NCBI GenBank assembly: GCA_031372065.1
Contig: JANMKN010000342.1
Location: 1-26,256 of the forward strand
DNA: 26,256 nucleotides
Reading direction: 5' to 3'
From: Abditibacteriaceae bacterium
Lineage (GTDB): Bacteria; Armatimonadota; Abditibacteriia; Abditibacteriales; Abditibacteriaceae
The translations under genes and the position numbers were made by a program. The notes beneath the pieces are model-generated. The model saw only the letters and a program-made list of their open reading frames with translations. It did not search any database and had not been told where the DNA came from. Positions 1 through 25,621 of this stretch are shown here, one piece after another; the stretch's first letter is position 1, and the number at the start of each line of letters is the position of its first letter.

Positions 1-762
1 CGCTTCGTCGTTACCCTTCCCGCTCCAACGGGTGAGTCTTATATATCACTGGGCCTTTACATTGACGATGAATTAGAATCTGAGCAGACCGCAGCCTACG
101 ATTTGACTTACAAAAGCCCTAAATTGCTCTGGACACTGAATGAAGTGGTTGGCGTGGCGCGCTTTGAGTTGGAGCGTCTCATGATCGCCTGCGCGGAAAA
201 ACTTTATTCGACCGCTGATATTGCCGACGCGCCCACATTGCTGCATACGTTCGGCGACGAAATTGTGAGCCTTGGCTTTAGCGATGAAACGTGGCTGGTC
301 GGTCTGGCAGATAACCATGTTTGGGCATTAATTGGCGGCGAGTGGATTGATCGCGGTGCGATTGCCACACCTGCCTTAGCGCTGTCCGGTTGGGAGGGTG
401 CAGGGGAAGACTTCTACGATGTGGCCGGCGGCGATTCCCCGCAGTTGTTCCAGCGCGTTCTCGCGGGTGGCCTGTGGTCGGATTTGCGCACCATCGAAGC
501 GGCTGAGGAGGAAGATGTCGAAGTTACTCAGATTACGGCTTTGGCCCGCTACGAAAAAATTACGCGCGAGGCATTGGGCACGCCGGGACAGCTGGGTTTT
601 GTGCCTGAAGAAAAGATCATCGGTCTGCTGATCGGCACCGCCCCGGACGGCGCGCTTTTGCTGCTGGAACTCTCGCCGATCACTGCTTCATCAGCGCTGC
701 TGGCCTCAAAAATGTCGCATTATGCGCTCGAAGGCTTTGAAACGCCGATGAGTGTTGTTTAG
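1..762 (+). CDS. Hypothetical protein, 5'-partial; acidic, possibly a phage structural or beta-propeller-like C-terminus
   Basis: Frame of ORF 103..762 is open back to base 1 (RFVVTLPAPTGESYISLGLYIDDELESEQTAAYDLTYKSP...), so the gene starts outside the window. The functional guess is weak. Confidence 0.6.
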   Translation, partial: RFVVTLPAPTGESYISLGLYIDDELESEQTAAYDLTYKSPKLLWTLNEVVGVARFELERLMIACAEKLYSTADIADAPTLLHTFGDEIVSLGFSDETWLVGLADNHVWALIGGEWIDRGAIATPALALSGWEGAGEDFYDVAGGDSPQLFQRVLAGGLWSDLRTIEAAEEEDVEVTQITALARYEKITREALGTPGQLGFVPEEKIIGLLIGTAPDGALLLLELSPITASSALLASKMSHYALEGFETPMSVV

Positions 763-795
763 AGAACACAAACAAAACCTCCTTGATAAGTATTC

Positions 796-1353
796 TTATC
801 CGGGAGGCTTTGGAGTCTTTTTGGGATTCGGCTTGGGAGTCTTTTTGGGTGTCGCGGTTACTGGCGGCTTGGGAGGCTTTTTTGGCTCATCTGTCTTTAT
901 TGGTGGCTGCCAGATAATGGCGAGGGCACTAAATACTCCTACCGCGAAAAAATATCCGCCCCTCACCAAATATTTAATAGTGTGCTCATAGATTTGTGTC
1001 AATTCTGCCTCTATAAGGTCAGAATCTATTTGAGCAAAGAAACCTAATTTGGATGGCTGTATGGGGTTGGATGGTGGTTTTCTGTAAGGGGGCAAATAGC
1101 CCCTTAAATATGTTCCTGCCGCACTGATAAAAAAAACGATAGGAAGAATTTGCACCAAATTTTTCGGCTTGCCATCCGCTTGTCCCAAAAGAGCAACATA
1201 AGCAGCGATGGCAGTAACAGCAATGGCAAGTAGCTGTTTACAGGCTTCCTGACGATTTTTGATAGCATCAAGGGCTATTATTTTCCCTGCGTCATAAACG
1301 GCCTCTTCTCTTGTGTTTTTTGGCTCCTCCAAAGTTCCCGGGTCGTTGCTCAC
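796..1353 (-). CDS. Hypothetical membrane protein (3 predicted TM segments, Pro/Lys-rich tail)
   Basis: 185-aa ORF; AAGGAG RBS before GTG; hydrophobic stretches LLAIAVTAIAAYVALLG, ILPIVFFISAAG, YFFAVGVFSALAIIW; AT-rich. Confidence 0.75.
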   Translation of the reverse strand: MSNDPGTLEEPKNTREEAVYDAGKIIALDAIKNRQEACKQLLAIAVTAIAAYVALLGQADGKPKNLVQILPIVFFISAAGTYLRGYLPPYRKPPSNPIQPSKLGFFAQIDSDLIEAELTQIYEHTIKYLVRGGYFFAVGVFSALAIIWQPPIKTDEPKKPPKPPVTATPKKTPKPNPKKTPKPPG

Positions 1354-1426
1354 TTGTTTCTCCTTGTTTGCGGTTGGGTCACCATAAATTTATACAAAAG
1401 TTGGTCTGGCTTCGATAGGAAATAAT

Positions 1427-1461
1427 AAAAACGCCGCGCTTTCACCAAGCGCGGCGTTTTT
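1427..1461. terminator. Intrinsic terminator, potentially bidirectional
   Basis: AAAAACGCCGCGCTT-tcacc-AAGCGCGGCGTTTTT perfect hairpin with T-tract on both strands, downstream of 1494..1715(-). Confidence 0.85.
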
Positions 1462-1493
1462 GTGGTCTTCACGGACGGCCCTAATGGGCGGTG

Positions 1494-1715
1494 CTAATTC
1501 GTCTGCGGTTCTATCCGCAGCTTCCGCCTGATCGCTGCTTGCTGGTCATACAGAGCGCCCAATTCGCGGAGCAAATCCGGCATGAGGGCTTTGGAATTGG
1601 GCACGGCTGCTACGGCAATTTTGTAGCGGATATGACCGATTTCCTTCTTGATTGTTTGGGCCGCCAAACCGGGGTTGTCCAACTTGTGATTGTCTGACTT
1701 GTGGCTGTCCGACAT
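1494..1715 (-). CDS. Small hypothetical protein (73 aa, helical)
   Basis: Within ORF 1494..1820; AAGGAG RBS precedes ATG at 1715 (MSDSHKSD...); terminator follows. Confidence 0.6.
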   Translation of the reverse strand: MSDSHKSDNHKLDNPGLAAQTIKKEIGHIRYKIAVAAVPNSKALMPDLLRELGALYDQQAAIRRKLRIEPQTN

Positions 1716-1833
1716 TTTTGAGTCTCCTTTTGGTGATGCGGTGTTTTGCATCTCGTTTTTGCGGCTTTTGATAACGCGCAAATAAGAAGCCGCTTTATGT
1801 CTAAAACCTATGGGGGTCAATTCTCCAATGCTG

Positions 1834-2364
1834 TTAGGCGCTGGCAGAGCGGATCGCTTCTATCGCTGCTTGATAATTTGGCTCTTGCATCTGGTCAGCG
1901 ACATAATCCGCATAAGCGATGCGGCCATTGCGGTCAATCACAAAAACAGCACGTTGCAATAAGCGCCACTCTTTGAGAAGCACACCGTAATCTTGGCCGA
2001 ACTGCTCGCTACAGTGGGAGGAGAGCGCTTGATGCGAGACACTTTCCGAGGCACTCCACCGGGCCTGAGCAAACGGTAAATCCATACTGATCGTATAAAT
2101 AGTGACATTGGGCGGCAATTCGGCACTCAGGTCACTCCAGCGGCGTGTCTCTACATGACAGACCGGCGTATCAAGCGAATTGATGACGTTGAGAAGCCGC
2201 ACTTGACCCGCAGAGTCTGCCAATTGCACGCTTTGCATCGCTGAATTGGCGGCATCAAAGTGATCCAAAACAAAAGAGGGCGCCGCATCGCCCGCTCGCA
2301 GTTTCCGGCCCATTACGGTTAATTTCTCATCGAACTCAAAGGCTTCGCCGACTCTTTCTTCCAT
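1834..2364 (-). CDS. tpx: Thiol peroxidase (Tpx-type peroxiredoxin)
   Basis: SLDTPVC peroxidatic motif (C69), ISMDLPFAQARW, RAVFVID, EPNY; GGGAGAG RBS. Confidence 0.9.
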   Translation of the reverse strand: MEERVGEAFEFDEKLTVMGRKLRAGDAAPSFVLDHFDAANSAMQSVQLADSAGQVRLLNVINSLDTPVCHVETRRWSDLSAELPPNVTIYTISMDLPFAQARWSASESVSHQALSSHCSEQFGQDYGVLLKEWRLLQRAVFVIDRNGRIAYADYVADQMQEPNYQAAIEAIRSASA

Positions 2365-2541
2365 TGCTGAAACTCTCCCTGTTTACCCTCTTAAATTTGT
2401 GTTCGTCCCAGCCAGCAGTGTGACGCGGAAGGAAACAACAAACAAGCGGCGTGGCGTGGAAGATGGTTATGTGCGACTGGATAGGGCACAGGCGCTCAAG
2501 GTGTTGGAATTTATGGAGGGGAGGCGGCGGAGGAGGCGGTA

Positions 2542-4548
2542 TTAATGCCTCTCGCCTTCCCCACTTATGTTGTTGAATCCTTCAATATGGGAAGGACATA
2601 TAATGCGATACCCCTCTGGGTCTAATATTGCACCTAAAAAAGTCTGTGTAAATGCATAAAGTGCATTTACACGTCGCCACCGCTCGAAATTCCAACGTCG
2701 GCGATATTCTGTATCAGTGGGCTCCACTTGATTTAGATAGAGCGTGCCTTGGGTATTTAGAGAGTCGCGCAATATGCCGATTTCCTTAACAATTCTTGTT
2801 AATCGTTCGTCTTCTGTGCTATCCCCGTCACCTAATTCCAGTGGTTTAAGGTTTAATGCTTTACACATTTCAATGAGAGTTAAGACAAATTCATTTGTTG
2901 TTAGCATTGTTTGCGGCAACTCCTGTTCTGATTTCTGTTGCCTATAAGCATGCATTAGCATGGATAAACATTGAATGATTATACAGCCCTTCATCTCAAG
3001 GAAAGCGTCATTACTTATTGATTTGGAAAGTATATTCATTGCTCGGCGCAAATTCCATTTGTCTTCTACAAGGGGCAAATTGGCAAACATTTTAGGTATA
3101 GAATGCTCAAGATTAGTAAAAGTCCAAATTCCGTTAAAATTTGGTTCACAAAAACGACCAATGATTCTATGAGCACACTCACTCGAAATAACACGATTAT
3201 CAGCTCCGATTAGATCGTAACTCAGCCAGTCAACACGCGACCCATGAAGTAAAGACAGGAGATCACAAACCTTGTTCATGGTGTCTGTGACTTCATCGAT
3301 TTGAGACATGGAGGTAATTTCTATATCAGCACAACAAGTAACCTCAACTCCACCGGCCTTGCCTAATTTCTCCAGTGTGTTTGCGTGCTCCTTTTTCGTG
3401 CCAATTCTGGTTAATAAAATGGGAAAAGGCAGTGGCTCAATTTGTATAGGTTTGTCGCTATCAAAAGTGTCTGTAGGAAAATCCATATTAGCAATGTAAA
3501 ACCTTACCTTTTTGACTAGGCCAGCTTGAAATATTAGATTTACTTTCTTGGTGGGACGCAGGTAAAAATTGAGCATTCCTCCACTACCAATAGAATCTTG
3601 TCTTATCTCAATTGCTTGTGTTTCTTTAGAAGAAACGACACAATTGCTGCCAAATTCAGGCACATGAACTTGCCCCTCAAACTCAATGCTATTGTTACCT
3701 GCAATATACTTAACGGCATCCAGTTCGCTTTGATTCGGAGATATTAGTGACATATATGAGCGCACGAATATTTGTATTTCTCCATCGGAAGACTGGAAAA
3801 ATTCAAAGTCACAATCAAGTCCCGTTTTATCCGCAATTAAGCGCCCTATACCGAATCCATTCCTCGAAGGATTCTGGAATCTGGGAAATTCAAATTTCGT
3901 TGGTCTAATCCCTTGATTAGAAAGCAAGCATAGTCCGTGAAGTTGTTGTTTGACATGGGGTAGTCGTATGAACACAGATGTTTTGCTAAGTTGCTTCGCC
4001 GCATACATTGTATCATCGGCTTCCCGAATTATTACTCGTCCTGCCGATGCATTATCTGCGTCATATTTTTTTCTATCGTCGCAGAAAACCACCCCGATGC
4101 TGGGGGCGATAGAGTGCTGTCCTTTTGTAGCAACGTATGGCAGTGTTAACTTACTGCGTATGGCCTCTGCATGGCTCATTGCTTTGTCAGAATCGTTACA
4201 TTTAGGCACCAAAACAACAAATTCATCCCCACCCAAGCGAAATGACATATCCGGATAAGATTTCCTTAGTCTTTGAGCTACTTCTTTAAGTAATTCATCA
4301 CCAACCTCGTGAGAATGCTCGTCGTTTACCGCCTTAAAACCATTTAAATCCATGAACAGTAAGGCGAAGGCATTTTCTGGGTTTTCATACAGAAGCTGCA
4401 ATTGATCGATTAGAGTATCTTCTAAAGCTGCACGGTTTAATAACCCTGTTAATGAGTCATGGTAAGCACGAGTCCACAAATCCTCAACATCATTTTTTAA
4501 GTTGTCCCGCCTCTTTTTAAATGTTTGTGATGGTTTTTGTTCAGACAT
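2542..4548 (-). CDS. GGDEF diguanylate cyclase domain fused to a C-terminal ApeA/HEPN-like region
   Basis: HDSLTGLLNR, MDLNGFKAVND and RLGGDEF (GGDEF codons 4219-4233) are clear. The C-terminal ~470 aa carry CDLLSLLHG, LRRAMNIL..FLEMKG..QCLSML and LRDSLNTQG, resembling ApeA-type HEPN proteins (inference). Start at 4548 (GAGGA RBS) or 4560; the 4647 start is unlikely. Confidence 0.8.
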   Translation of the reverse strand: MSEQKPSQTFKKRRDNLKNDVEDLWTRAYHDSLTGLLNRAALEDTLIDQLQLLYENPENAFALLFMDLNGFKAVNDEHSHEVGDELLKEVAQRLRKSYPDMSFRLGGDEFVVLVPKCNDSDKAMSHAEAIRSKLTLPYVATKGQHSIAPSIGVVFCDDRKKYDADNASAGRVIIREADDTMYAAKQLSKTSVFIRLPHVKQQLHGLCLLSNQGIRPTKFEFPRFQNPSRNGFGIGRLIADKTGLDCDFEFFQSSDGEIQIFVRSYMSLISPNQSELDAVKYIAGNNSIEFEGQVHVPEFGSNCVVSSKETQAIEIRQDSIGSGGMLNFYLRPTKKVNLIFQAGLVKKVRFYIANMDFPTDTFDSDKPIQIEPLPFPILLTRIGTKKEHANTLEKLGKAGGVEVTCCADIEITSMSQIDEVTDTMNKVCDLLSLLHGSRVDWLSYDLIGADNRVISSECAHRIIGRFCEPNFNGIWTFTNLEHSIPKMFANLPLVEDKWNLRRAMNILSKSISNDAFLEMKGCIIIQCLSMLMHAYRQQKSEQELPQTMLTTNEFVLTLIEMCKALNLKPLELGDGDSTEDERLTRIVKEIGILRDSLNTQGTLYLNQVEPTDTEYRRRWNFERWRRVNALYAFTQTFLGAILDPEGYRIICPSHIEGFNNISGEGERH

Positions 4549-4556
4549 ACTTTTCC

Positions 4557-4670
4557 TCATTTCAACGGCAAACCCTTCTTCTGCCGATACCGAATCGCCC
4601 TCCCACGCGGACACCCTGCCTTGTGTTCTAAACCCTTGACACCACAATTACATTCAAATGTGGCTTTCAT
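4557..4670 (-). CDS. Small basic CCHC (CxC-x6-H-x3-C) peptide, 37 aa
   Basis: Hand-translated MKATFECNCGVKGLEHKAGCPRGRAIRYRQKKGLPLK*; absent from the ORF track; its TGA overlaps the ATG at 4560 (ATGA). Confidence 0.55.
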   Translation of the reverse strand: MKATFECNCGVKGLEHKAGCPRGRAIRYRQKKGLPLK

Positions 4671-4737
4671 TGGGCTATGCCTGTGTCATCTATTGATTTT
4701 AACCAGATTCTGCCGAGAATTCGCCGTAAAGCCCGTT

Positions 4738-5604
4738 TTATTCCGTAGGCGGATTTGGTTTTTCTTTAGGCTTCGGCCTTCTTTTTGGAGGTGATTTTTT
4801 TGTAAGGCGCACAGCAAGGGCTGTTCCAATGGCAGGCAGCAAAATCATCAACATGGCTTTTAGTGGTTCTTCAAGCACACGTTCTACGAAGGTCTTATTT
4901 TTCGGTTCGTCAGATTTGCCTGAAGCCGGACTACTGGTAGTTGCGCCATTACCCACCGCAGCACTTGGAGCGGCAGGGGCTGCAGCGGGAGCAACAGAGG
5001 CAGTGGCGGGGATGTTAGACGGGTCTACGTCTATATTGATCTGGCGATGAAATGGTGTGTCTTTGGCAATGGGCTTACCGTCGCTTCCCTTCACTAAATT
5101 ACCCTTTTTGTCAGTCAAAAGAATGCTGGCAATCAAAGTCAATTCGCGGTTCTTACCAACTCGCTTAGGCGTTACATTCCATGACCAGTAGGCAGACTCG
5201 TCTTTCGTGACAATCTTTTCCATGCTGCCGGTGCCCTGATACTCAATATCGAAATCCAGCCTGCTACCTTTTAATTCAGCGCGCATTTTATCCCGACCAT
5301 TGGCAGGAATTCCGATCTTTTTTACTTGAGGCAGACGAATCAATTCTTTGCGCATCTCCTCCGTGATTTTTTGCCCGATCCTTACCTCAATAACTTGAGA
5401 TTGGCTCACATACATTTGTGATGGTGGATCGAAGGCAATCTCGCCGGAAACATAAGATCCCGCCGTTGACGGGGCTGTTGCTTGAGGCAAACTTAGATCA
5501 GGCGAGACTGATTCACTGGATCTGCGAAAAGCGAATTGATTAAGTGCAATAGCAGCTAATACCACACTACCTACGCCTAAAAAGCCCCAGTCCTTGGATG
5601 TCAT
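4738..5604 (-). CDS. Hypothetical protein anchored at both ends, with an extracytoplasmic beta-rich (Ig-like) domain
   Basis: N-terminal hydrophobic helix; GEIAFDPPSQM..IEVRI..MRAELKG..WSWNVTP core; Ala/Pro linker; C-terminal TM followed by a basic tail; AGGGA RBS. Confidence 0.75.
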   Translation of the reverse strand: MTSKDWGFLGVGSVVLAAIALNQFAFRRSSESVSPDLSLPQATAPSTAGSYVSGEIAFDPPSQMYVSQSQVIEVRIGQKITEEMRKELIRLPQVKKIGIPANGRDKMRAELKGSRLDFDIEYQGTGSMEKIVTKDESAYWSWNVTPKRVGKNRELTLIASILLTDKKGNLVKGSDGKPIAKDTPFHRQINIDVDPSNIPATASVAPAAAPAAPSAAVGNGATTSSPASGKSDEPKNKTFVERVLEEPLKAMLMILLPAIGTALAVRLTKKSPPKRRPKPKEKPNPPTE

Positions 5605-5801
5605 AATAATTCCCTGTTTGCTCTGTCCTGCGGTTCAAGTTTTATTTGGCTTATGTGGTCTGGAGTAGCAGCTTTTTAATGCTAATCCCCATCAACCCTC
5701 ATACGCAGCGATTTTATCAAAAAACTATTAGGAATGTTCCAAGAATACCGGCTTTTTGTCCCTTGCCTATTTCATTGTCCCAGAAATATTCAGCCTACGA
5801 T

Positions 5802-6350
5802 TTATAATGCAGAAATCTCTTTGGCCTTACATTTAAGCGCCTCACAAAGCCACTGCAAAGTTTTCTCTGTCACGGCTGTCACCAATCCCTTTTCAATCTT
5901 GGCTAACTGGCTAATGCGCGTTTTATTGCCATCACCGGCAGCCTCGAAGGTGAGACCCAATTTCAGGCGACGGGCGCGAATCTTCGGGCTGTCTATCGGT
6001 ATGAGATGCGCGCCGCGTGGTCTGTCGCGCATTTTGCAGGGAGGTATGCCCAATGCCTTGCGCCGCGCATAGATGGTGCTGGTAGGAATGCCGATTACTT
6101 TCGCCAATTTACGGTCGGGCATCGTGCCCAGCAGCTTTTCCTTTTCGGGCGTCCAGTGTTTTAGTTTGGCGCCCACATTGGCGAGCGCCTCAATCCCCGC
6201 GTCGCGTCGCCACTTGTGCGCTGTCTGATGGCACACACCGGCGCGGCGTGCAATTTCCAGATCGGTTACTTTGCCAAGCAGGGGCAAATACTCCTCGCGC
6301 AATCGTGCTATTTCACGATTGGATTTACGAGGTTTTCGAGAGCGGCGCAT
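5802..6350 (-). CDS. Multi-HTH transcriptional regulator (two LLGxxxDxxxA HTH repeats plus C-terminal XRE-like HTH)
   Basis: LLGKVTDLEIARRAG, LLGTMPDRKLAKVIG, then IRARRLKLGLT..LAKIEKG..LCEALKC. Start reassigned to ATG 6350 because the longer ORF overlaps the divergent gene. Confidence 0.8.
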   Translation of the reverse strand: MRRSRKPRKSNREIARLREEYLPLLGKVTDLEIARRAGVCHQTAHKWRRDAGIEALANVGAKLKHWTPEKEKLLGTMPDRKLAKVIGIPTSTIYARRKALGIPPCKMRDRPRGAHLIPIDSPKIRARRLKLGLTFEAAGDGNKTRISQLAKIEKGLVTAVTEKTLQWLCEALKCKAKEISAL

Positions 6351-6416
6351 TATGCTGATTATAAACCATAGAGGGAGGGTGGGGTGAGAATGCCGGAACT
6401 GATTTATAATTAGGCT
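6351..6416. promoter_or_regulatory. Back-to-back promoters, both apparently leaderless
   Basis: Minus strand: TATAAT (6358-6363) 7 nt before ATG 6350. Plus strand: TATAAT (6405-6410) 6 nt before ATG 6417. No clear -35 boxes. Confidence 0.65.
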
Positions 6417-7409
6417 ATGAAAGATTTGGCAAAGCGCTTTCGATTTCCTGTCCTGTTTTTTGCTTGCTTTTTGCTGCTGGCCTCGCCATACGCTTCGCCA
6501 TACGTCCCGCCCCACGCGGCAAGCGCCGCAATTGTGGCAGACGGCGACGACCATATACGGCCCGCAATACAACCCGAACGTGGCGCTCCGTCCGCTCCTT
6601 CGGCTGGATCGGTGGGTTCGGCGGTGCCAGCCAGCGCCAAGGTCTTGGTTTACTTTTCGCCCAAAGGCGGCGCGCAAGAGGCCATTATTCGCGAAATCGA
6701 CGCGGCCAAAGTCTCAATCAGGATGCAAGCCTACAATTACAGCAGCGAACCGATTGGCGCCGCGTTGCTCAAGGCCAACCAGCGCGGTGTCAAAATTACC
6801 GCGCTCTTGGACGACAGTAACCAAACAGCGCAATATACCGGCGCGACGTTTTTGCAGAATCAGGGCGCGCAAGTCTTCACCGATGGCAAACACAAAATCG
6901 CGCACTCCAAAATTATGATTTTGGATGGTAACACACCTAATGGCACGATTATCACCGGATCGTTTAATTTCACGAAAGCCGCCGAAGAAAGCAATGCGGA
7001 GAATCTGCTGGTCATTAAAGACTCGCTCGAACTGGTCACAGCCTACAATGCCAATTTCGACGCGCACATGACACACGCAACTCCCTACGAGCGCAAAGGT
7101 GCCACGACGCTGCCAATGCCCGAAGATGACGACGAAACGACCACACTGCCACCAATAACAACGACAACGCCACCAATTACGCTACCAACTACGCCGCCGG
7201 TTGTTGTCACCAGCGGCAAAACCAATATCAACACGGCGACGGCCAAAGAACTGGAAAAACTGCCCAACATCGGCAAAGTGACGGCAGCGCGCATTATCGA
7301 ATACCGGCAAGCCAAAGGCCCGTTTAAGAGCGTGCAAGACTTGGATAAGGTGCAAGGCATCGGCAAGGCGACGCTGGAAAAATTACGCGATTTGGTGACA
7401 GTTGGATAA
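6417..7409 (+). CDS. Secreted PLD-family (Nuc-like) endonuclease with C-terminal ComEA-type helix-hairpin-helix domain
   Basis: Signal peptide; VYFSPKGG; single HKD motif HSKIMILD..GSFNFT..NAENLL; Thr/Pro linker; NINTATAKELEKLPNIG..VQGIG HhH pair. Confidence 0.88.
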   Translation: MKDLAKRFRFPVLFFACFLLLASPYASPYVPPHAASAAIVADGDDHIRPAIQPERGAPSAPSAGSVGSAVPASAKVLVYFSPKGGAQEAIIREIDAAKVSIRMQAYNYSSEPIGAALLKANQRGVKITALLDDSNQTAQYTGATFLQNQGAQVFTDGKHKIAHSKIMILDGNTPNGTIITGSFNFTKAAEESNAENLLVIKDSLELVTAYNANFDAHMTHATPYERKGATTLPMPEDDDETTTLPPITTTTPPITLPTTPPVVVTSGKTNINTATAKELEKLPNIGKVTAARIIEYRQAKGPFKSVQDLDKVQGIGKATLEKLRDLVTVG

Positions 7410-7656: not shown

Positions 7657-8232
7657 GTGTCCTACACCGATGAATGGGACGTGGCAAAGGTGGCCAACAA
7701 AAAATATGGCGATGTGCCAATTTCGATTAAATTCACCAAATATGGCACGTCGGTGGATTTGGGCGATGCCATGCGGCAGTTTTCGGTTGATGAAAAATTC
7801 ATGATTATCATCGGCTACTGGAAGCAGGAAGGTGACCGGAAGCGCGTGGTGAATATTGTGGCGCCGGTGCTGAGTCCGGAACAGTGGCACAAAATGTTTG
7901 AGCCGATTACCAACGAGGGCCTGCAAAAATTGGATTCCACAGTGAAAAACCGCGATTTAACACCGCGACAAGCCGCATTGGAAGCCTCGAAAATCAAACG
8001 CGCCGCGCCGTTTACCGAGGCGCTGATGACCATGAATCCGAAAATTGACAGCAAAACGCAGCGTCGCTTGCAGTGCAGTTTGCGTTTTGACTACGTTTTC
8101 AAATATTTAGCGCCCGATGCTGATCGCGCGGTGCAGGAAAACCCCAAACTATTCGGCGTAGAAGCGCCGCCGCCTTTTGTTTCCAATCCGCGACAGTTCA
8201 AGAAAGAGTTCGAGAAAGACGAAGAAAAATAA
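7657..8232 (+). CDS. Conserved hypothetical protein, restriction-endonuclease-like fold suspected; possibly 5'-truncated
   Basis: YTDEWD..PISIK..VDLGDAMRQ..NPKIDSKTQRRLQCS; host-like codons; GTG start with no RBS and an in-frame TGA at 7645-7647. Confidence 0.6.
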   Translation: MSYTDEWDVAKVANKKYGDVPISIKFTKYGTSVDLGDAMRQFSVDEKFMIIIGYWKQEGDRKRVVNIVAPVLSPEQWHKMFEPITNEGLQKLDSTVKNRDLTPRQAALEASKIKRAAPFTEALMTMNPKIDSKTQRRLQCSLRFDYVFKYLAPDADRAVQENPKLFGVEAPPPFVSNPRQFKKEFEKDEEK

Positions 8233-8285: not shown

Positions 8286-9824
8286 TTAATGATCGGTTTT
8301 CTCTCCATCGCCGGGACTGTATTCGATGTCATTGGCGCGGTAGGAGTCCAGCAATTCGGTTTTGCTGGTGGACTTGACATAACCTTCGTGCGCCGAAACG
8401 CGGCCTGCTTTGACAAAGGTCATAATCGCGTCGTTCATGGTGACCATGCCCATCTTTTTGCCGATTTGCATTTGCGAGGGCAATTGGAACGTTTTGCCTT
8501 CGCGAATGAGGTTGGAAACCGCAGGCGGAATCAGCAAAATTTCGTTAGCGGCCACGCGCTTGCCATCCGTAGTGCGCAAAAGCGTCTGTGCGATAACGCC
8601 CTTGAGCGATTCGGAAAGCATAACGCGAATTTGCTCTTGCTGGTCGGCGGGAAACTGGTCAATGATGCGGTCAACTGTTGAGGGCGCCGTTGTGGTGTGC
8701 AGCGTGCCGAAAACCAAGTGACCGGTTTCAGCGGTTTCGATGGCGATGGCGATGGTTTCCAAGTCGCGCATTTCACCAACCAGAACAATATCCGGGTCTT
8801 CGCGCAAAGCGGCGCGCAAGGCTCGTTTAAACGATTGCGTGTGAACGTGAACTTCGCGCTGGTTAATCAGACATTTGATGTTGTTATGAACAAATTCCAC
8901 CGGGTCTTCGATGGTAATAATGTGTTCGTCGCGGTTTTTGTTGATGTAGTCAATCATCGCCGCCAGCGTGGTAGATTTGCCTGAACCCGTCGGGCCGGTG
9001 ACGACAACCAAACCTTTCGACAAATAACATAAGTCGAGAATGGATTGCTTTAGATTGAGTTGCTCGGCGGTGAGAACTTTGGAGGGAATCAAACGAAAAA
9101 CAGCGCCGATGCCTTTGCGGTCTTCAAAATAGTTGCACCGAAAACGTGCCAGTTCGGGCACTTCGTAAGCAAAGTCGCTGTCCCGATCACTTTCCCATTC
9201 TTCCTTGTTGCGCTCAGGCGCGATGTCCCACAGCAATTTTTTTAGGTAATCCGGCGAATTGACTTCATATTGTGTCAACTGCTTCATGACACCATGCTGG
9301 CGCACCATCGGATATTCATCCGAAGACAAATGCAAGTCGCTGGCTTCCATGTCGTTCATCAAATGGAATAGTTCGTCAATATGCGGCACGCGTTTGCCAC
9401 CACCGGGCGCGGCAGGCGTAGCAGCGACAGGCGTAGCAGCGACAGGCGTTGGCGCGGCGGGAGCAGGCGCGGTCTTTTCCGGTGCGGTTTGCGGGGCAAC
9501 CGCTACTTCTGGGGCTGCTTTGGCGGGATCGAACGTGGTAATGGTGATTTGCAAACTGCCGTTGGCCCGTCCGACGCCAATTTCAAACGCACCATGCGGC
9601 GACTGATAGGGAAAATTGAACCCACCATCCTGTGACAACTGGCCTTTCATATTGGCCGGTGTGATTTCGGCCACGACCTGCTGTAACTGCGCACCGGGAA
9701 TCGCTGAACCGGCTTTTTCCTGCCCATCTTCCATGTAAAAGTGCATCGGCTTATCGTTGACGATTAGCACTCTTTTGACATGGCTTTGCACCATTGAACC
9801 GATTAATGCATCAATTTGAGCCAC
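8286..9824 (-). CDS. pilT: Type IV pilus retraction ATPase PilT with an extra N-terminal domain
   Basis: GPTGSGKST Walker A, TIEDPVE Asp box, LREDPD..VGEMRD Walker B, GHLVFGTLH His box, AVSNLIRE (AIRNLIRE-like); AAGGAG RBS before GTG. Confidence 0.92.
   Translation of the reverse strand: MAQIDALIGSMVQSHVKRVLIVNDKPMHFYMEDGQEKAGSAIPGAQLQQVVAEITPANMKGQLSQDGGFNFPYQSPHGAFEIGVGRANGSLQITITTFDPAKAAPEVAVAPQTAPEKTAPAPAAPTPVAATPVAATPAAPGGGKRVPHIDELFHLMNDMEASDLHLSSDEYPMVRQHGVMKQLTQYEVNSPDYLKKLLWDIAPERNKEEWESDRDSDFAYEVPELARFRCNYFEDRKGIGAVFRLIPSKVLTAEQLNLKQSILDLCYLSKGLVVVTGPTGSGKSTTLAAMIDYINKNRDEHIITIEDPVEFVHNNIKCLINQREVHVHTQSFKRALRAALREDPDIVLVGEMRDLETIAIAIETAETGHLVFGTLHTTTAPSTVDRIIDQFPADQQEQIRVMLSESLKGVIAQTLLRTTDGKRVAANEILLIPPAVSNLIREGKTFQLPSQMQIGKKMGMVTMNDAIMTFVKAGRVSAHEGYVKSTSKTELLDSYRANDIEYSPGDGEKTDH
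9413..9449. repeat. 15-bp tandem repeat (2.5 copies) encoding TPVAA linker
   Basis: CAGGCGTAGCAGCGA x2 plus CAGGCGT. Confidence 0.8.
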
Positions 9825-9842
9825 ATTAGTCTCCCTTTAGGA

Positions 9843-9920
9843 GAGTTAAGAGTCTTGAGTGAGGAGTTTCGAGTTAAATCCGCTTTTAGCTCAAAACTCC
9901 TCACTCAAAACTCTTAACTC
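9843..9920. repeat. 36-bp-arm inverted repeat built from GAGTnnn heptamers
   Basis: Arms 9843-9878 and 9885-9920 with 3 mismatches; GAGT at 9843, 9850, 9857, 9864, 9871. Confidence 0.9.
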
Positions 9921-9924
9921 ATAA

Positions 9925-10998
9925 TTAATCTGCCGTGCGCCGCAGCATTTGGCGCAGTTCGGAACGTTTGCCGGCATTTTCCAACGCGACTTCTTCGGAA
10001 ATAACGCCTTGTTTGTAATAAGCGTCCAGCGCCATGTTCATGGTTTGCATTTTCCACTGCGAGGCGCCTTCTTGGATGGCCTGATAAATCGCGCTGGAGC
10101 GGCCTTCTTCGAGGTATTGCGCGACAGTTGGCGACACGTTGAGAATTTCAATGGCGCACTTGCGGCCTTTGCCGTCAATGGTTGGCACCAGCTTTTGAGA
10201 CAAAATGCCTCGCAGAGTTTTGGCAAGGCGTTGTTGCACGAGGTCTTTTTCGTGCGGCTGAAACATCGAAAGAATACGCTCCAATGATTCCGCCGCCGAT
10301 GCGGTGTGCAATGTCGAGAAAACCAAGTGACCCGTTTCTGCGGCTTGCAAGCAGATTTGCATGGTTTCTTGGTCGCGCAATTCGCCGACTAAAATTAAAT
10401 CGGGCGCTTCGCGCAACGCGGCACGCAAGGCGTCGCCGAATTTGGCAGTATCAAGACCAACTTCACGCTGTGAAACAATACAGCCTTTGTCGGGATGCAC
10501 ATATTCAATTGGGTCTTCGATAGTAACAATGTGGCCGCGTTTTTCTTGATTGTAAAGGTCAATCATCGCCGCCAAGGTGGTAGATTTGCCCGAACCTGTT
10601 GGACCGGTGACCAGCACCAAGCCATCGTGCGGGCGCGTGAAATCGGCGATGACTTCGGGAAGGCCCAAGTCTTGAAAGGTGCGAATTTTTAGTTGCACCA
10701 CACGTAAACACAGCGCGACGCTGCCGCGCTGACGGTAAACATTAACGCGAAAGCGCGCCACATTAGGAATAATGTAAGCGCAATCGTGATCGGGATGCTC
10801 CAAAAACTCTTGCCACCGTTTGGGCGGCATAATGTGTTGGGCAATTTGATCAAGGTCTTCCGGCGTGAGCGGCGGCATATCCAGCTTGCGAATCGAGCCG
10901 TTCAATCGCAAAACCGGCGGCGCATCCTCCTTGAAAAACACGTCCGAAACATTTTGCTGCGTGGCAAAAGTTAGCAATCCATCAATGTCCAAAGCCAT
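9925..10998 (-). CDS. PilT/PilU-family type IV pilus ATPase
   Basis: GPTGSGKST, TIEDPIE, LREAPD..VGELRD, GHLVFSTLH; the AIRNLIRE position reads TVAQYLEE. Confidence 0.9.
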   Translation of the reverse strand: MALDIDGLLTFATQQNVSDVFFKEDAPPVLRLNGSIRKLDMPPLTPEDLDQIAQHIMPPKRWQEFLEHPDHDCAYIIPNVARFRVNVYRQRGSVALCLRVVQLKIRTFQDLGLPEVIADFTRPHDGLVLVTGPTGSGKSTTLAAMIDLYNQEKRGHIVTIEDPIEYVHPDKGCIVSQREVGLDTAKFGDALRAALREAPDLILVGELRDQETMQICLQAAETGHLVFSTLHTASAAESLERILSMFQPHEKDLVQQRLAKTLRGILSQKLVPTIDGKGRKCAIEILNVSPTVAQYLEEGRSSAIYQAIQEGASQWKMQTMNMALDAYYKQGVISEEVALENAGKRSELRQMLRRTAD

Positions 10999-11040
10999 AA
11001 TTCAACCTTTTAGTAGTTTTTTAGGTTTTTGGCCTAAAAA

Positions 11041-11520
11041 TCAATCAATTTCACCGCGCCTTGCGGCATTAGCCCAAGCGCGGGCCGAGATAATGGCGCC
11101 GACCAATAAGGCCGCAACTCCGGCTACCAAGAAAATCAAGGTAACTTGCGATTGGCCGGGAGTTTCGATGAGGGTGCCCAAGTCACGAGCGCGCAAGTCG
11201 TTAGCGAGCGCCATGTGTTTGGCTAAGAGCGCAATAAGAATGCAGCCCCAGCCCACAGAAGAAATCAATAGTCCAGTGTCTTGCGCCGCTTCGGTTACAC
11301 GCAGGAATCCGTAAGCATACCACAGTGTCGGAGCCAAACAAGGCAGGGCCATAAGCAAATAGGCGAATTGAAATGGCACCAGCCGCGCCAACAAGCCCCA
11401 GCCCAACAGCAGCGTGTAGAGCATTGAGATAATAACCAGAGCAGTCAGAAAGTGATCAGTCGCGTGATTGCGCCGACCATTCGGCGTTTGACGCGATGCA
11501 TTAGATGATGCTGGGAGCAC
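11041..11520 (-). CDS. Hypothetical membrane protein (4 TM)
   Basis: Four hydrophobic segments; TAGAAT (11528-11533) 7 nt before the GTG start. Confidence 0.7.
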   Translation of the reverse strand: MLPASSNASRQTPNGRRNHATDHFLTALVIISMLYTLLLGWGLLARLVPFQFAYLLMALPCLAPTLWYAYGFLRVTEAAQDTGLLISSVGWGCILIALLAKHMALANDLRARDLGTLIETPGQSQVTLIFLVAGVAALLVGAIISARAWANAARRGEID

Positions 11521-11608
11521 GGCTCATATTCTAACGAAAATAGGCGCTTCTCAAAAGCGTTTTTCGCAGCATTTGCGAAAACTGGCTTGTAAAACGGGAG
11601 ACAAATCA

Positions 11609-11643
11609 CAAAAAGGCCAAGGAATGGTTCCTTGGCCTTTTTG
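11609..11643. terminator. Intrinsic terminator after the tadG-like gene
   Basis: CAAAAAGGCCAAGGAA-tgg-TTCCTTGGCCTTTTTG. Confidence 0.85.
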
Positions 11644-11664
11644 ATTTCGCTAAATTGTTGCTGA

Positions 11665-13101
11665 TTATTCTACCAACTTGATCTCACCCGGTTTACCGGC
11701 AGAGCCACCCGTGTAAGACATTTCCCACACTGAAGTGTCATTTGCACCAGCAGTGTAGGTCGCGCTCCATGTGCCACCGGGATAACTCAGCGGCAACGAA
11801 ATGAGGTCGGTATAAAACGTGCCGTTGGTTGAAAGTTGACCCCGGATGGGCGCGCTCACTGTGCCATCGGGGGCTTTGTAGGTGTAGTCCACATTGAGAC
11901 TGCCAACATCCGTATCGAACTTGCGGATAGACAGTTGATGGCCCGCTGCATCAACGGGCACATTCCCTAATTCAATGGTGGAATTACCACTGGCATTAAA
12001 GTTCATAGGCAGAAAGCCATCTCCGCTGATGGAAGTGCCGTTTTGAGGATCAAAGGCAACCCCCGCAGGTCTCGCACGCAAAACGAAGGCATTTTCACTG
12101 GCCCCCGATATGGTTGTGACGTTAAGAAGAAAGCTGCCACCTGCATAATTGGCTCGATTGAAGGTAAATGTGGGATCCCATGTCATGTCTGTCGTGACAT
12201 CATCTCCAAACGTTTTTTCATCAATTAGCTGCAATTGGGACGGATCACCATTGCCTTTTGGGTCATGGTAAAGCGTGTAGCGCGTTGTGGTAATGTCGGA
12301 CGGCACGATAGCATCACTCTGATTTTGATTATAAGGCTTACGCAGTTCATCAATGCGCACTCCGGCTTGAACGAACCGACCTCCGTTGTTGTGACAATCG
12401 GGGTCGAAAATCTCCAAAACCGTGTCTGTGTAGGAACTCGGCACATTAACAGTGAAATTATAGCCTTTGCCTGTGTAATCAGGATTTGCTTGACCATTCA
12501 GCAAGTATTTTGCGCTACGAAAATCACCATAATCATAGCGCGCGTCCGGCCCAAAAAGAGAAAGGTTTGTCGGGCCATCGGGTTGACCATAATTTCCGCC
12601 ACCTCCACTTGTGCTAAGAGGAGATAGTGTTTCATATTCCGCTGTCGCAGTGCTGGTAACAGGGCGACTGGGCAGACCAAAAATGCGCGCAAAGAACAAA
12701 GGCTCGTTACGGCTCACTTTCGCCCGAAACTGCTTTGGTTGGCTTGGAACCGGATTCGTAATGATGACTGTCACACCCGGCTGGTAATTCGGAGCGTTGG
12801 GGTCGCTGACGTAGCCATTGGCGCCCGCTGCATTCCGAGCCGCTGTATTGGCATTGCTGCTGCGAAAATTCGCCATTTCATAAGCACCCGCTAAAGCTGC
12901 CGCATCAGCAGCAAGCTGAGATTTAGCTTTGCGACCATAAAGATTGCCCATATCCACCGACAAAGCAGCTGTGCCGATAAAAACGGTGAGGCCAAGTGCC
13001 ACATAAACCAACACTGAACCATGACGACGCGTTTGACGGTTATGCCAATTGCGACGGGCAGTAATGCTCTTCGAATGGGGCGTCAAAAATTTTTGATTCA
13101 T
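11665..13101 (-). CDS. tadG: TadG-like pilus-associated protein with large beta-rich C-terminal region
   Basis: RRHG|SVLVYVAL..ALSVDMG..QLAADAAALAGA Tad N-terminal motif; PLFFARIFG; AGGAG RBS before ATG 13101. Confidence 0.8.
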   Translation of the reverse strand: MNQKFLTPHSKSITARRNWHNRQTRRHGSVLVYVALGLTVFIGTAALSVDMGNLYGRKAKSQLAADAAALAGAYEMANFRSSNANTAARNAAGANGYVSDPNAPNYQPGVTVIITNPVPSQPKQFRAKVSRNEPLFFARIFGLPSRPVTSTATAEYETLSPLSTSGGGGNYGQPDGPTNLSLFGPDARYDYGDFRSAKYLLNGQANPDYTGKGYNFTVNVPSSYTDTVLEIFDPDCHNNGGRFVQAGVRIDELRKPYNQNQSDAIVPSDITTTRYTLYHDPKGNGDPSQLQLIDEKTFGDDVTTDMTWDPTFTFNRANYAGGSFLLNVTTISGASENAFVLRARPAGVAFDPQNGTSISGDGFLPMNFNASGNSTIELGNVPVDAAGHQLSIRKFDTDVGSLNVDYTYKAPDGTVSAPIRGQLSTNGTFYTDLISLPLSYPGGTWSATYTAGANDTSVWEMSYTGGSAGKPGEIKLVE

Positions 13102-13134
13102 AATCAACTCCTACAAAAACTGCCACAAGTGGCT

Positions 13135-13662
13135 TTACTCAAGCACCATTGACCCACTCACCTGAGTTGTCCCAATACCGCTTAAACCCGGAAACCCGGA
13201 TGGCAGGATTAATTTATTTCGCAAGTTATAACTCACAGTGACCGTAACCAAGGAACCTTTCTGTCGTGCGGTCTGAACCGGCGTGATGGTCACATCGGTA
13301 TTGGGATCAAGGTTGCTTAGAGTGGTTTTCGCAGCCACATCTCGAATGCGACATCGGATGATGTGGTTTCCTGCGACAAGACACGCCGCTGTGCTGGCAG
13401 CGTCGTCGGCATCGGTGTCTTTTCCATGCAACGCTGCGTAACGGGCGCCTTCGCGGGCGATATTGGTCAGCGTGATTTTGGCGTTGGCGATGAGGCCATA
13501 TTGAATCAATCCCAGCGTCAGAAAGAGCAACACGATGACCACCATTGCCATTTCTATGAGAGCTTGACCTCGACGCACGCTGTTTTTCGGTGTGTAACGC
13601 GCACCGAAAAACTTCGAAATGCCCTGTAATGTGGCTTTGCTTATCATTTTCTGTTGAATCAT
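13135..13662 (-). CDS. tadE: TadE-like pseudopilin
   Basis: RRG|QALIEMAMV (Glu at +5), hydrophobic helix, AREGARYA; AAGGAG RBS. Confidence 0.85.
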   Translation of the reverse strand: MIQQKMISKATLQGISKFFGARYTPKNSVRRGQALIEMAMVVIVLLFLTLGLIQYGLIANAKITLTNIAREGARYAALHGKDTDADDAASTAACLVAGNHIIRCRIRDVAAKTTLSNLDPNTDVTITPVQTARQKGSLVTVTVSYNLRNKLILPSGFPGLSGIGTTQVSGSMVLE

Positions 13663-25380: not shown

Positions 25381-25411
25381 CCGAAAAGTATGATTTTCGG
25401 CTCCCCAAAAT

Positions 25412-25621
25412 TGCCTCCGACGGCGTCGGAAGCATTTTAGGAGAGTGGAAAAATGCCTCCGACGGCGTCGGAAGCATTTTGGGAGAGTCGGAAAACCGCG
25501 CCGACGCCGTCGGAGGCACTTTGGGAGAGTGGAAAACCTCTGCCGACGCTGTCGGAGGCACTTTGGGGAAGCCAAAAAGTGTTCCCGACTACGTCGGAGG
25601 CATTTATAGAGAGTGAAAAAG
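25412..25621. repeat. Five tandem 42-bp palindromic (REP-like) repeats
   Basis: Units start at 25412, 25454, 25496, 25538, 25580; each has CCGAC-nnn-GTCGG followed by a conserved AxGCAxTT..GAGAGT.GAAA-like segment. Confidence 0.9.

Follow-up and report, generated by a model that had tools for sequence, protein, structure and literature searches.

An AT-rich accessory gene of an Abditibacteriaceae bacterium joins a canonical GGDEF cyclase domain to a degenerate ApeA/HEPN-type module

Layout of the fusion gene

The window analysed is the whole stretch of 26,256 nucleotides from contig JANMKN010000342.1 (GenBank assembly GCA_031372065.1, Abditibacteriaceae bacterium; positions 1 to 26,256 of the forward strand). 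It carries a minus-strand gene for a protein, P0001, in which a GGDEF cyclase domain is followed by about 450 amino acids that, by homology and predicted fold, are an ApeA_NTD1/HEPN_Apea-type (YopA-like) module. The features of the gene are as follows:

2542..4548, minus: GGDEF-ApeA_NTD1-like-HEPN-like fusion gene (P0001), 668 amino acids, single open frame
4462..4530, minus: N-terminal helix, residues 7-29, predicted short coiled coil that runs into a DSLT motif; kept in 5/5 fusions
3982..4467, minus: GGDEF domain, residues 28-189 (PF00990 match, fold comparison)
3898..3981, minus: linker, residues ~190-217, of low model confidence, preceded by the clade-specific motif AKxLSK[TA]S (alignment, model)
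3529..3897, minus: split beta-barrel, residues ~218-340, which opens the ApeA_NTD1-like region (model, fold comparison, profile)
3154..3528, minus: alpha/beta middle domain, residues ~341-465 (model, alignment)
2584..3123, minus: HEPN-like helical domain, residues ~476-655 (alignment, fold comparison)
2752..2769, minus: HEPN site in degenerate form, R594-DSLN-T599, with Thr in place of His; aligns with RNxLVH of stand-alone relatives
2671..2685, minus: clade-specific ERxRR, residues 622-626, in 6/6 clade rows covering it and rare in stand-alone relatives

A first-pass annotation, made from the sequence alone, had proposed an AT-rich GGDEF fusion gene at this position, and the gene proved genuine. 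The minus-strand frame is uninterrupted from 4548 to 2542; GAGG lies 6 nucleotides ahead of the ATG at 4548, and this start agrees within five to six residues with the starts of homologues. A TTG at 4647, which falls inside a broken upstream open reading frame (ORF), was rejected as the start. The guanine-plus-cytosine (GC) content of the gene is 40.6 %, compared with 53.2 % genome-wide, a value as low being found in 3 of 1830 frames of at least 400 amino acids from the same genome. A sequencing-run contig of 5318 nucleotides spans the fusion junction with zero differences (the same run is possibly the source of the window); because this contig bridges the junction, and because three other full-length proteins share it, the fusion did not arise by faulty assembly. 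Contig cover in the three DNA sequencing runs, all from one study, was patchy, with no joint across the cassette among those listed, and no RNA sequencing run carrying P0001 was among those listed.

GGDEF domain

The short N-terminal coiled coil that had been noted earlier corresponds to a helix at residues 7-29 of the predicted model. The GGDEF domain was likewise found intact, with a PF00990 match at residues 28-187 (E 3.7e-33; 115 bits, cut-off 23.8), the GGDEF motif at residues 106-110 and a close fold match to 4yme (Z 20.7, root-mean-square deviation (rmsd) 1.6, 151 aligned). D67, K72, N75, D84, R104, GGDEF 106-110 and K185 are invariant in 5/5 fusions; by analogy with PleD-type cyclases, D67, K72, N75, D84 and GGDEF are presumed to have catalytic or guanine-binding roles. 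The inhibitory RxxD I-site is missing, as had been remarked: residues 97-100 of P0001 read SYPD, and RxxD is absent in 5/5 fusions. The genome of the window holds 17 other GGDEF-like frames, and 13 of them carry it. No PAS, GAF, REC or EAL partner was matched in family-library scans of P0001, in line with the first-pass annotation. P0001 has an intact-looking, canonical diguanylate cyclase domain with a complete catalytic signature and without an I-site, and synthesis of cyclic di-GMP (c-di-GMP) is predicted.

C-terminal module

Relatedness of the C-terminal part to ApeA and HEPN proteins had been supposed from several motifs, of which those quoted are all present (LLSLLHG at 430, LRRAM at 500, FLE at 516, CLSML at 527), and profile searches, ESM Atlas and fold comparison concur with it. 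AlphaFold models, both of full-length P0001 (predicted local distance difference test (pLDDT) 85.7, low over 187-217) and of the module alone (pLDDT 87.5, predicted template modelling (TM) score 0.87), display a split beta-barrel, then an alpha/beta domain, then a helical domain. Homology to stand-alone proteins of ~450 amino acids with ApeA_NTD1 (PF18862) and HEPN_Apea (PF18739), and to YopA_M/YopA_C clusters, is collinear over residues 220-651, that is, over barrel, middle and helical domains; the middle domain is the region most conserved relative to the stand-alone proteins (F350, N354, T404, C428, G436, W441).

A profile made from stand-alone rows only, which had been picked with a profile of P0001 and P0002 (a second fusion, see below), matches P0001 at residues 220-542 with E 1e-37 and at 553-651 weakly. 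When 106 aligned rows were scanned, HEPN_Apea was found in 19, HEPN_RiboL-PSP in 13 and ApeA_NTD1 in 3, all weakly. In ESM Atlas, the clusters nearest to residues 200-668 are ApeA_NTD1/HEPN_Apea and YopA_M/YopA_C (score 0.95); by structure, with the model of the fusion P0121, the nearest such cluster has a TM score by target of 0.69, below the family-naming bar of the tool.

Fold comparison of the module returned 50 rows. Nine fall on the helical part, and 9/9 are HEPN or HEPN-like (Z 6.9-8.3, values that the tool rates as ambiguous where helical bundles are compared), among them Csm6 (Z 8.3, rmsd 3.4, 119 aligned), AbiA and HepT-type toxins. The remaining 41 fall on the barrel and comprise flavin reductases, Hcp/tail tubes and PilZ proteins (Z 6.7-8.1); viral structure matches of the C-terminal model were tail-tube barrels. 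A Foldseek search of this model against the PDB gave no match at E<=1e-3 and no ApeA entry among the rows listed, and PDB sequence searches with the fusion gave nothing significant. The fold Z values are middling, and what carries the HEPN/ApeA case is that they agree with the sequence evidence. Homodimer prediction for residues 218-659 scored 0.36, 0.29 and 0.39 (mark, 0.42; controls, 0.00).

HEPN site

The RxxxxH motif that the first-pass annotation placed at the HEPN site was not found there. Strings of the form R-x4-6-H occur in P0001 only at 381 and 648, and neither is kept in the other fusions; RIICPSH (648) was rejected as the site, being unconserved and in the C-terminal tail. HEPN RNases (ribonucleases) carry their catalytic Rx4-6H where helix 3 ends; P0001 reads RDSLNT there. 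The consensus of the stand-alone proteins ends RNxLVHxG, and both R and H are kept in 100 of the 101 stand-alone rows that cover the catalytic site. In the four full-length fusions the His column holds T, T, Q and Y (Y read from P0122/P0269), and His is thus absent in 4/4, whereas R594 is conserved in 6/6 clade rows. The clade differs from the stand-alone proteins also in its ERxRR and in its helical insert, which has 28-30 residues instead of a median of 66 (~38 shorter). In enzyme fusions, HEPN domains have typically lost this motif and taken on a regulatory role (PMC3710099).

Family of fusions

The architecture is not a singleton: four full-length fusions, P0001 included, and one truncated copy share the same junction. 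P0002, found among the best 120 of 3216 matches in a whole-protein search, covers 97 % of P0001 at 31 % identity. A profile of the C-terminal parts of P0001 and P0002 was run over 1.84 billion representatives and gave 188 matches at E<=1e-3, nearly all stand-alone. Among the 150 matches listed, P0001, P0002, P0121, P0244 and the fragments P0122, P0123 and P0169 form a close group, and the cluster of P0122 contains the full-length member P0269. The other 143 matches listed have no GGDEF motif and are mostly ~400-500 amino acids long; 102 were taken for the stand-alone alignment, and 41 shorter ones (<=427 amino acids) were excluded.

The full-length fusions (P0001, P0002, P0121, P0269) have 658-669 amino acids and 31-39 % identity to P0001, and P0244, in which the junction is present, ends at 322 amino acids, 86 nucleotides short of the contig end. 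Their C-terminal domains (full-length proteins) are 24-41 % identical in pairs and hold more than 60 invariant residues beyond the cyclase, which, together with the shared junction, indicates long purifying selection; W475, C458, ERxRR and R236 are invariant and clade-specific. In a rapidly built tree with 51 rows (of the stand-alone proteins, the first 45 with at least 400 amino acids; P0169 and P0244 excluded) the clade stands on a single long branch (length 1.91) with a Shimodaira-Hasegawa-like approximate likelihood ratio test value of 100, and the His-bearing P0123 branches first within it with support of 89, under the mark of the tool. The long branch and the clade's own conserved residues are as expected after a change of role. 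The data fit one fusion or divergence event that would have been followed by RNase loss, in an order that the tree does not fix.

No fusion was found in 61 related genomes or elsewhere in 401 genomes of the phylum. A stand-alone relative with intact RDHLTH occurs in genome G008, and the match in G230 is a frame of 472 amino acids. At L003:5372-15340 (G008:C2), a stand-alone ApeA-type protein with intact RDHLTH lies on one strand with a DEAD/ResIII helicase, a CoiA-like protein and a 1266-amino-acid protein without family match. Word-index protein searches with the C-terminal part returned the query alone (1 of 6415; 1 of 6704) and are insensitive here, because only the query was found although known members exist. 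Locus scans with the whole alignment returned ordinary GGDEF genes at 17/17 viral, 80/80 genome and 79/80 metagenome loci listed, L062 being the only member, and phage and plasmid collections gave no match to the fusion. The family is a real new architecture, tiny and rare yet conserved.

Genomic setting

Three further features describe the surroundings of the gene:

763..5800 (approximate boundaries), no strand: accessory stretch with the fusion gene, absent between matching neighbours in contig G001:C728 of a related genome
2454..2532, plus: downstream flank, which shares 87 % identity with the flank next to another cargo in G001
4563..4727, minus: broken remnant (one internal TGA) of a small Cys/His-rich ORF, a marker that precedes variable cargo in relatives

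The first-pass annotation had assigned the gene to an accessory region, and a stretch of ~5 kb around it is missing from G001:C728. As the G001 homologues of window 1-762 and 5802-7409 adjoin, this stretch, with the fusion gene, is an insertion. Both immediate flanks recur in G001:C650, where the AT-rich cargo between them is a different one, namely an unknown gene paired with a Ser/Thr kinase. DNA-level matches of the upstream flank were obtained at three loci, in the same orientation, before this pair, before Pycsar (PycTIR, E 4e-103; PycC, E 3e-68) and before an ABC-three-component system (CTD12 with HNH, MC8, DUF2326). The Cys/His-rich marker ORF occurs in 13 of 31 related genomes and has no Pfam or PHROG match.

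A second context is given by L062, where the fusion gene (GC 58 %, surroundings ~66 %) and the genes for DruE-like (E 2e-97) and DpdE/DrmD-like (E 1e-259) helicases are divergently transcribed. Around the fusion gene in the window, neither integron-like nor terminal repeats were found. A defence-like setting is supported by the defence genes that, in other DNA, occupy the corresponding slot or lie next to it.

Relation to known systems

P0001 lies outside canonical ApeA and outside the active HEPN RNases. Canonical ApeA (Ec1/Ec2ApeA; 10.64898/2026.01.26.701840, 10.64898/2026.03.20.713152) resembles it in having N-terminal and middle domains and a C-terminal HEPN domain, but its N-domain is alpha-helical, its Rx4H is intact and it lacks a cyclase, whereas P0001 has a beta-barrel, has lost the His and carries GGDEF in front. 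ApeA_NTD1 itself has been defined as a 'mostly beta' N-domain (PMC3710099). The PADLOC ApeA model and the Pfam ApeA_NTD1 and HEPN_Apea models do not match P0001; only its stand-alone relatives are matched, weakly. A minimal ApeA homologue of 467 amino acids has been put to the test, and Bm1ApeA, apparently this protein, protected against DNA phages.

Among cyclases, PleD, WspR, DgcB and YfiN/DgcN share with P0001 the helix, the GGDEF fold (Z ~18-21) and a complete catalytic signature, yet the input module of P0001 is C-terminal and defence-RNase-derived, and the I-site is lacking. A near parallel in coupling a palm-fold cyclase to HEPN in defence is mCpol (Panoptes), including predicted mCpol-HEPN fusions (PMC12657218). 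The GGDEF motif of mCpol is nearly gone, its product is c-di-AMP or cGAMP and its HEPN partners are described as RNases, as opposed to the canonical GGDEF and degenerate HEPN of P0001; no Panoptes effector gene (2TM-beta, CARF, SAVED) lies beside P0001 in the window. A canonical GGDEF domain, a rarity in this role, has also been predicted in conflict for the vWA-MoxR-VMAP ternary systems (PMC7159879), which, unlike P0001, are multi-gene NTPase systems, with no HEPN or ApeA partner mentioned in the accessible part of the source.

No description of a GGDEF-ApeA/HEPN fusion was found in the accessible parts of the literature searched, of which supplements could still list such an architecture. 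A preprint of August 2026 (PMC13640721) states that future work may show GGDEF domains exapted for antiphage systems; in 10.64898/2026.08.10.743927, GGDEF-like folds are already listed with the defence cyclases, at the level of the fold; and in the accessible part of PMC11364771 GGDEF occurs in a reference only.

Predicted function

P0001 is predicted to work like a sensor-coupled diguanylate cyclase that descends from the ApeA_NTD1/HEPN_Apea group. Two options had been offered by the first-pass annotation, a one-protein signal-plus-effector system and a HEPN scaffold repurposed as a sensor that drives the cyclase; the second fits the data best. The explanation placed first here, although held tentatively and at somewhat less than even chances, is that the disarmed ApeA-like module is a sensor of infection or damage that switches on the unbraked cyclase. 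HEPN domains typically pair, from which we infer that the HEPN-like domains would pair here and hold two GGDEF domains close, as a diguanylate cyclase needs. A ligand, probably nucleic-acid-derived as in ApeA, may bind near R594 or the ERxRR patch; binding would shift the HEPN-like pair and let the N-terminal helices zip. Without an I-site the product would not be fed back, so c-di-GMP would surge and guanosine triphosphate (GTP) would fall, and output might pass through the host c-di-GMP network to growth arrest or to surface or pilus remodelling. The cyclase would in this way supplant the RNase as effector.

Sensing, cyclase activity and the defence role are each predicted from architecture, homology, conservation and context. 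Several observations weigh against such a sensor. Residues 200-668 of P0001 have zero matches in Pfam, NCBIfam, PADLOC and PHROGs, the helical-part Z values lie in the ambiguous range given above, and the clade fragments P0123 (RHSLQH) and P0169 (RDSLRH) retain the His. Canonical ApeA is oligomeric and is gated by deoxydinucleotides in a pocket between its alpha-helical N-domain and HEPN (10.64898/2026.01.26.701840); that N-domain is not present in the P0001 model, where a beta-barrel stands instead, and the canonical ligand is for this reason not simply transferable. No effector or c-di-GMP receptor gene was found adjoining the fusion in the window. Context is known for two of the five junction-bearing members, one of which (L062) is truncated at 322 amino acids. 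Of 16 marker loci, 13 were examined (L034-L036, partial matches, were excluded); at the 12 other than that of the fusion, the marker is followed by a complete defence system at two, by conflict-type genes at five (kinase pair, REC-TIR, HNH and two toxin-antitoxin pairs) and by neither at five, counts that come with no background rate.

The narrower claim of a one-gene defence design, with a disarmed ApeA-type RNase as sensor of phage infection and a feedback-free canonical diguanylate cyclase as output, is possible but rather doubtful. If true, infection would be wired directly to the core c-di-GMP messenger, a canonical GGDEF cyclase would have been exapted for anti-phage immunity, and a defence protein would have been inverted from effector to sensor. 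The family is a single-gene, directly testable candidate for GGDEF exaptation and would give a handle on the ligand of beta-barrel ApeA-type proteins; its very small size, and the place that GGDEF-like folds already have among defence cyclases, weigh against its significance.

Of the rival explanations, a constitutive cyclase on a mobile cassette is unlikely but survives best. The dead ApeA-like module would be a mere dimerising scaffold, and c-di-GMP would always be raised, altering biofilm, pili or phage-receptor display; control of phage receptors by c-di-GMP has reportedly been published (PMC8669472). Loss of the I-site in 5/5 fusions, loss of the catalytic His, the lack of a known sensory domain and the 17 other GGDEF-like frames of the host all agree with it. 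A module of 450 amino acids and three domains with clade-specific invariants (W475, C458, ERxRR, R236) nevertheless exceeds the needs of a scaffold, an unbraked always-on enzyme would probably be costly, and the equivalent slot in relatives holds defence genes.

In a one-chain guard of the Panoptes type, which is improbable, steady c-di-GMP bound to the barrel or the ERxRR patch would silence a toxic, non-catalytic HEPN-like module until phage proteins that sequester or break down c-di-GMP released it. PilZ receptors bind c-di-GMP by RxxxR plus (D/N)xSxxG on a split barrel, and the barrel of P0001 resembles the PilZ proteins 1yln, 5vx6, 7mie and 3kyf (Z 6.9-7.2), although these rows score no higher than those of Hcp, tail tubes and flavin reductases. 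Residue 225 is K or R in 4/5 fusions (G in 74/86 stand-alone rows), which gives [KR]xxx[RK] just ahead of the barrel; P0001, however, has Q225 (QxxxR), and (D/N)xSxxG is absent, the turn being QxxDG as in the stand-alone proteins. Guards that use decoy nucleotides have been published, as have mCpol-HEPN fusions (PMC12657218), but no toxic activity is evident here without the His, and depletion would presumably be masked by the host cyclases.

The signal-plus-effector option, in which the GGDEF product would activate an RNase in the same chain, is weakened by the loss of the catalytic His in 4/4 full-length fusions and is rated slightly less probable again. R594 is kept in 6/6 rows, the full motif is held by P0123 and P0169, a His stands one position early in P0002 and P0269, and in some HEPN domains other residues are believed to serve instead (PMC3710099). 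Against this, the catalytic-column His has given way to three different residues, no His lies nearby in P0001 and P0121, and the His-bearing P0123 and P0169 are fragments that need not be fusions; in enzyme-fused HEPN domains, moreover, regulation with loss of catalysis is typical (PMC3710099). A chance fusion of two adjacent genes, now decaying and without joint function, would suit the rarity (1 in 401 genomes searched), the singleton clusters, the broken flanks and the one truncated member, but is very improbable for four proteins of 658-669 amino acids that keep the junction and more than 60 invariant residues at 24-41 % C-terminal identity.

Other features of the window and of related loci

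Window 1-762 encodes the C-terminal end of a protein; the homologue in G001 has 1221 amino acids and fibronectin-III repeats. Copies of 1-762 that are 90-93 % identical open contigs C124 and C231, with different genes after each (HNH, DUF6338). A prophage-tail reading of this part is based on appearance only, window 1-759 and four G001 neighbours giving 0 PHROG matches. Within the accessory stretch, the frames at 796-1353, 1494-1820 and 4738-5604 lie on the strand of the fusion and have no family match above cut-off in four libraries. A perfect inverted repeat of 15 bp with a 5-nucleotide loop at 1427-1461 is terminator-like and has a similar copy on C228; palindromic repeats at 9843-9920 and 25394-25620 recur on several further contigs of this genome.

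Further along, window 6417-7409 encodes a PLD nuclease that carries a fused ComEA-type HhH domain and has a paralogue on C270; beside it, 7657-8232 gives a weak match to a type II restriction enzyme (E 7e-5) and to phrog_6892. Window 8286-13662 holds genes for two ATPases of the T2SSE family that look PilT-like, together with Tad/TadE pilin-type genes, all conserved in relatives; these pilus-type genes are probably core and unrelated to the insertion.

At related loci, the AT-rich cargo of G001:C650 (L014:7955-10332) encodes a 404-amino-acid protein without family match and the Ser/Thr kinase, and is a candidate for an undescribed defence pair. The Cys/His-rich ORF (L025:1501-1737; loci L025-L040) is often followed by defence or toxin-antitoxin genes and is a possible marker for mining defence cargo. 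At L033:664-1485 (G021), a fusion of a response-regulator receiver and a TIR domain directly follows the marker ORF, and at L042:9127-11670 (G005:C12) a third gene, which weakly matches HEPN_RiboL-PSP (E 9e-5), comes after the Pycsar genes PycTIR and PycC.

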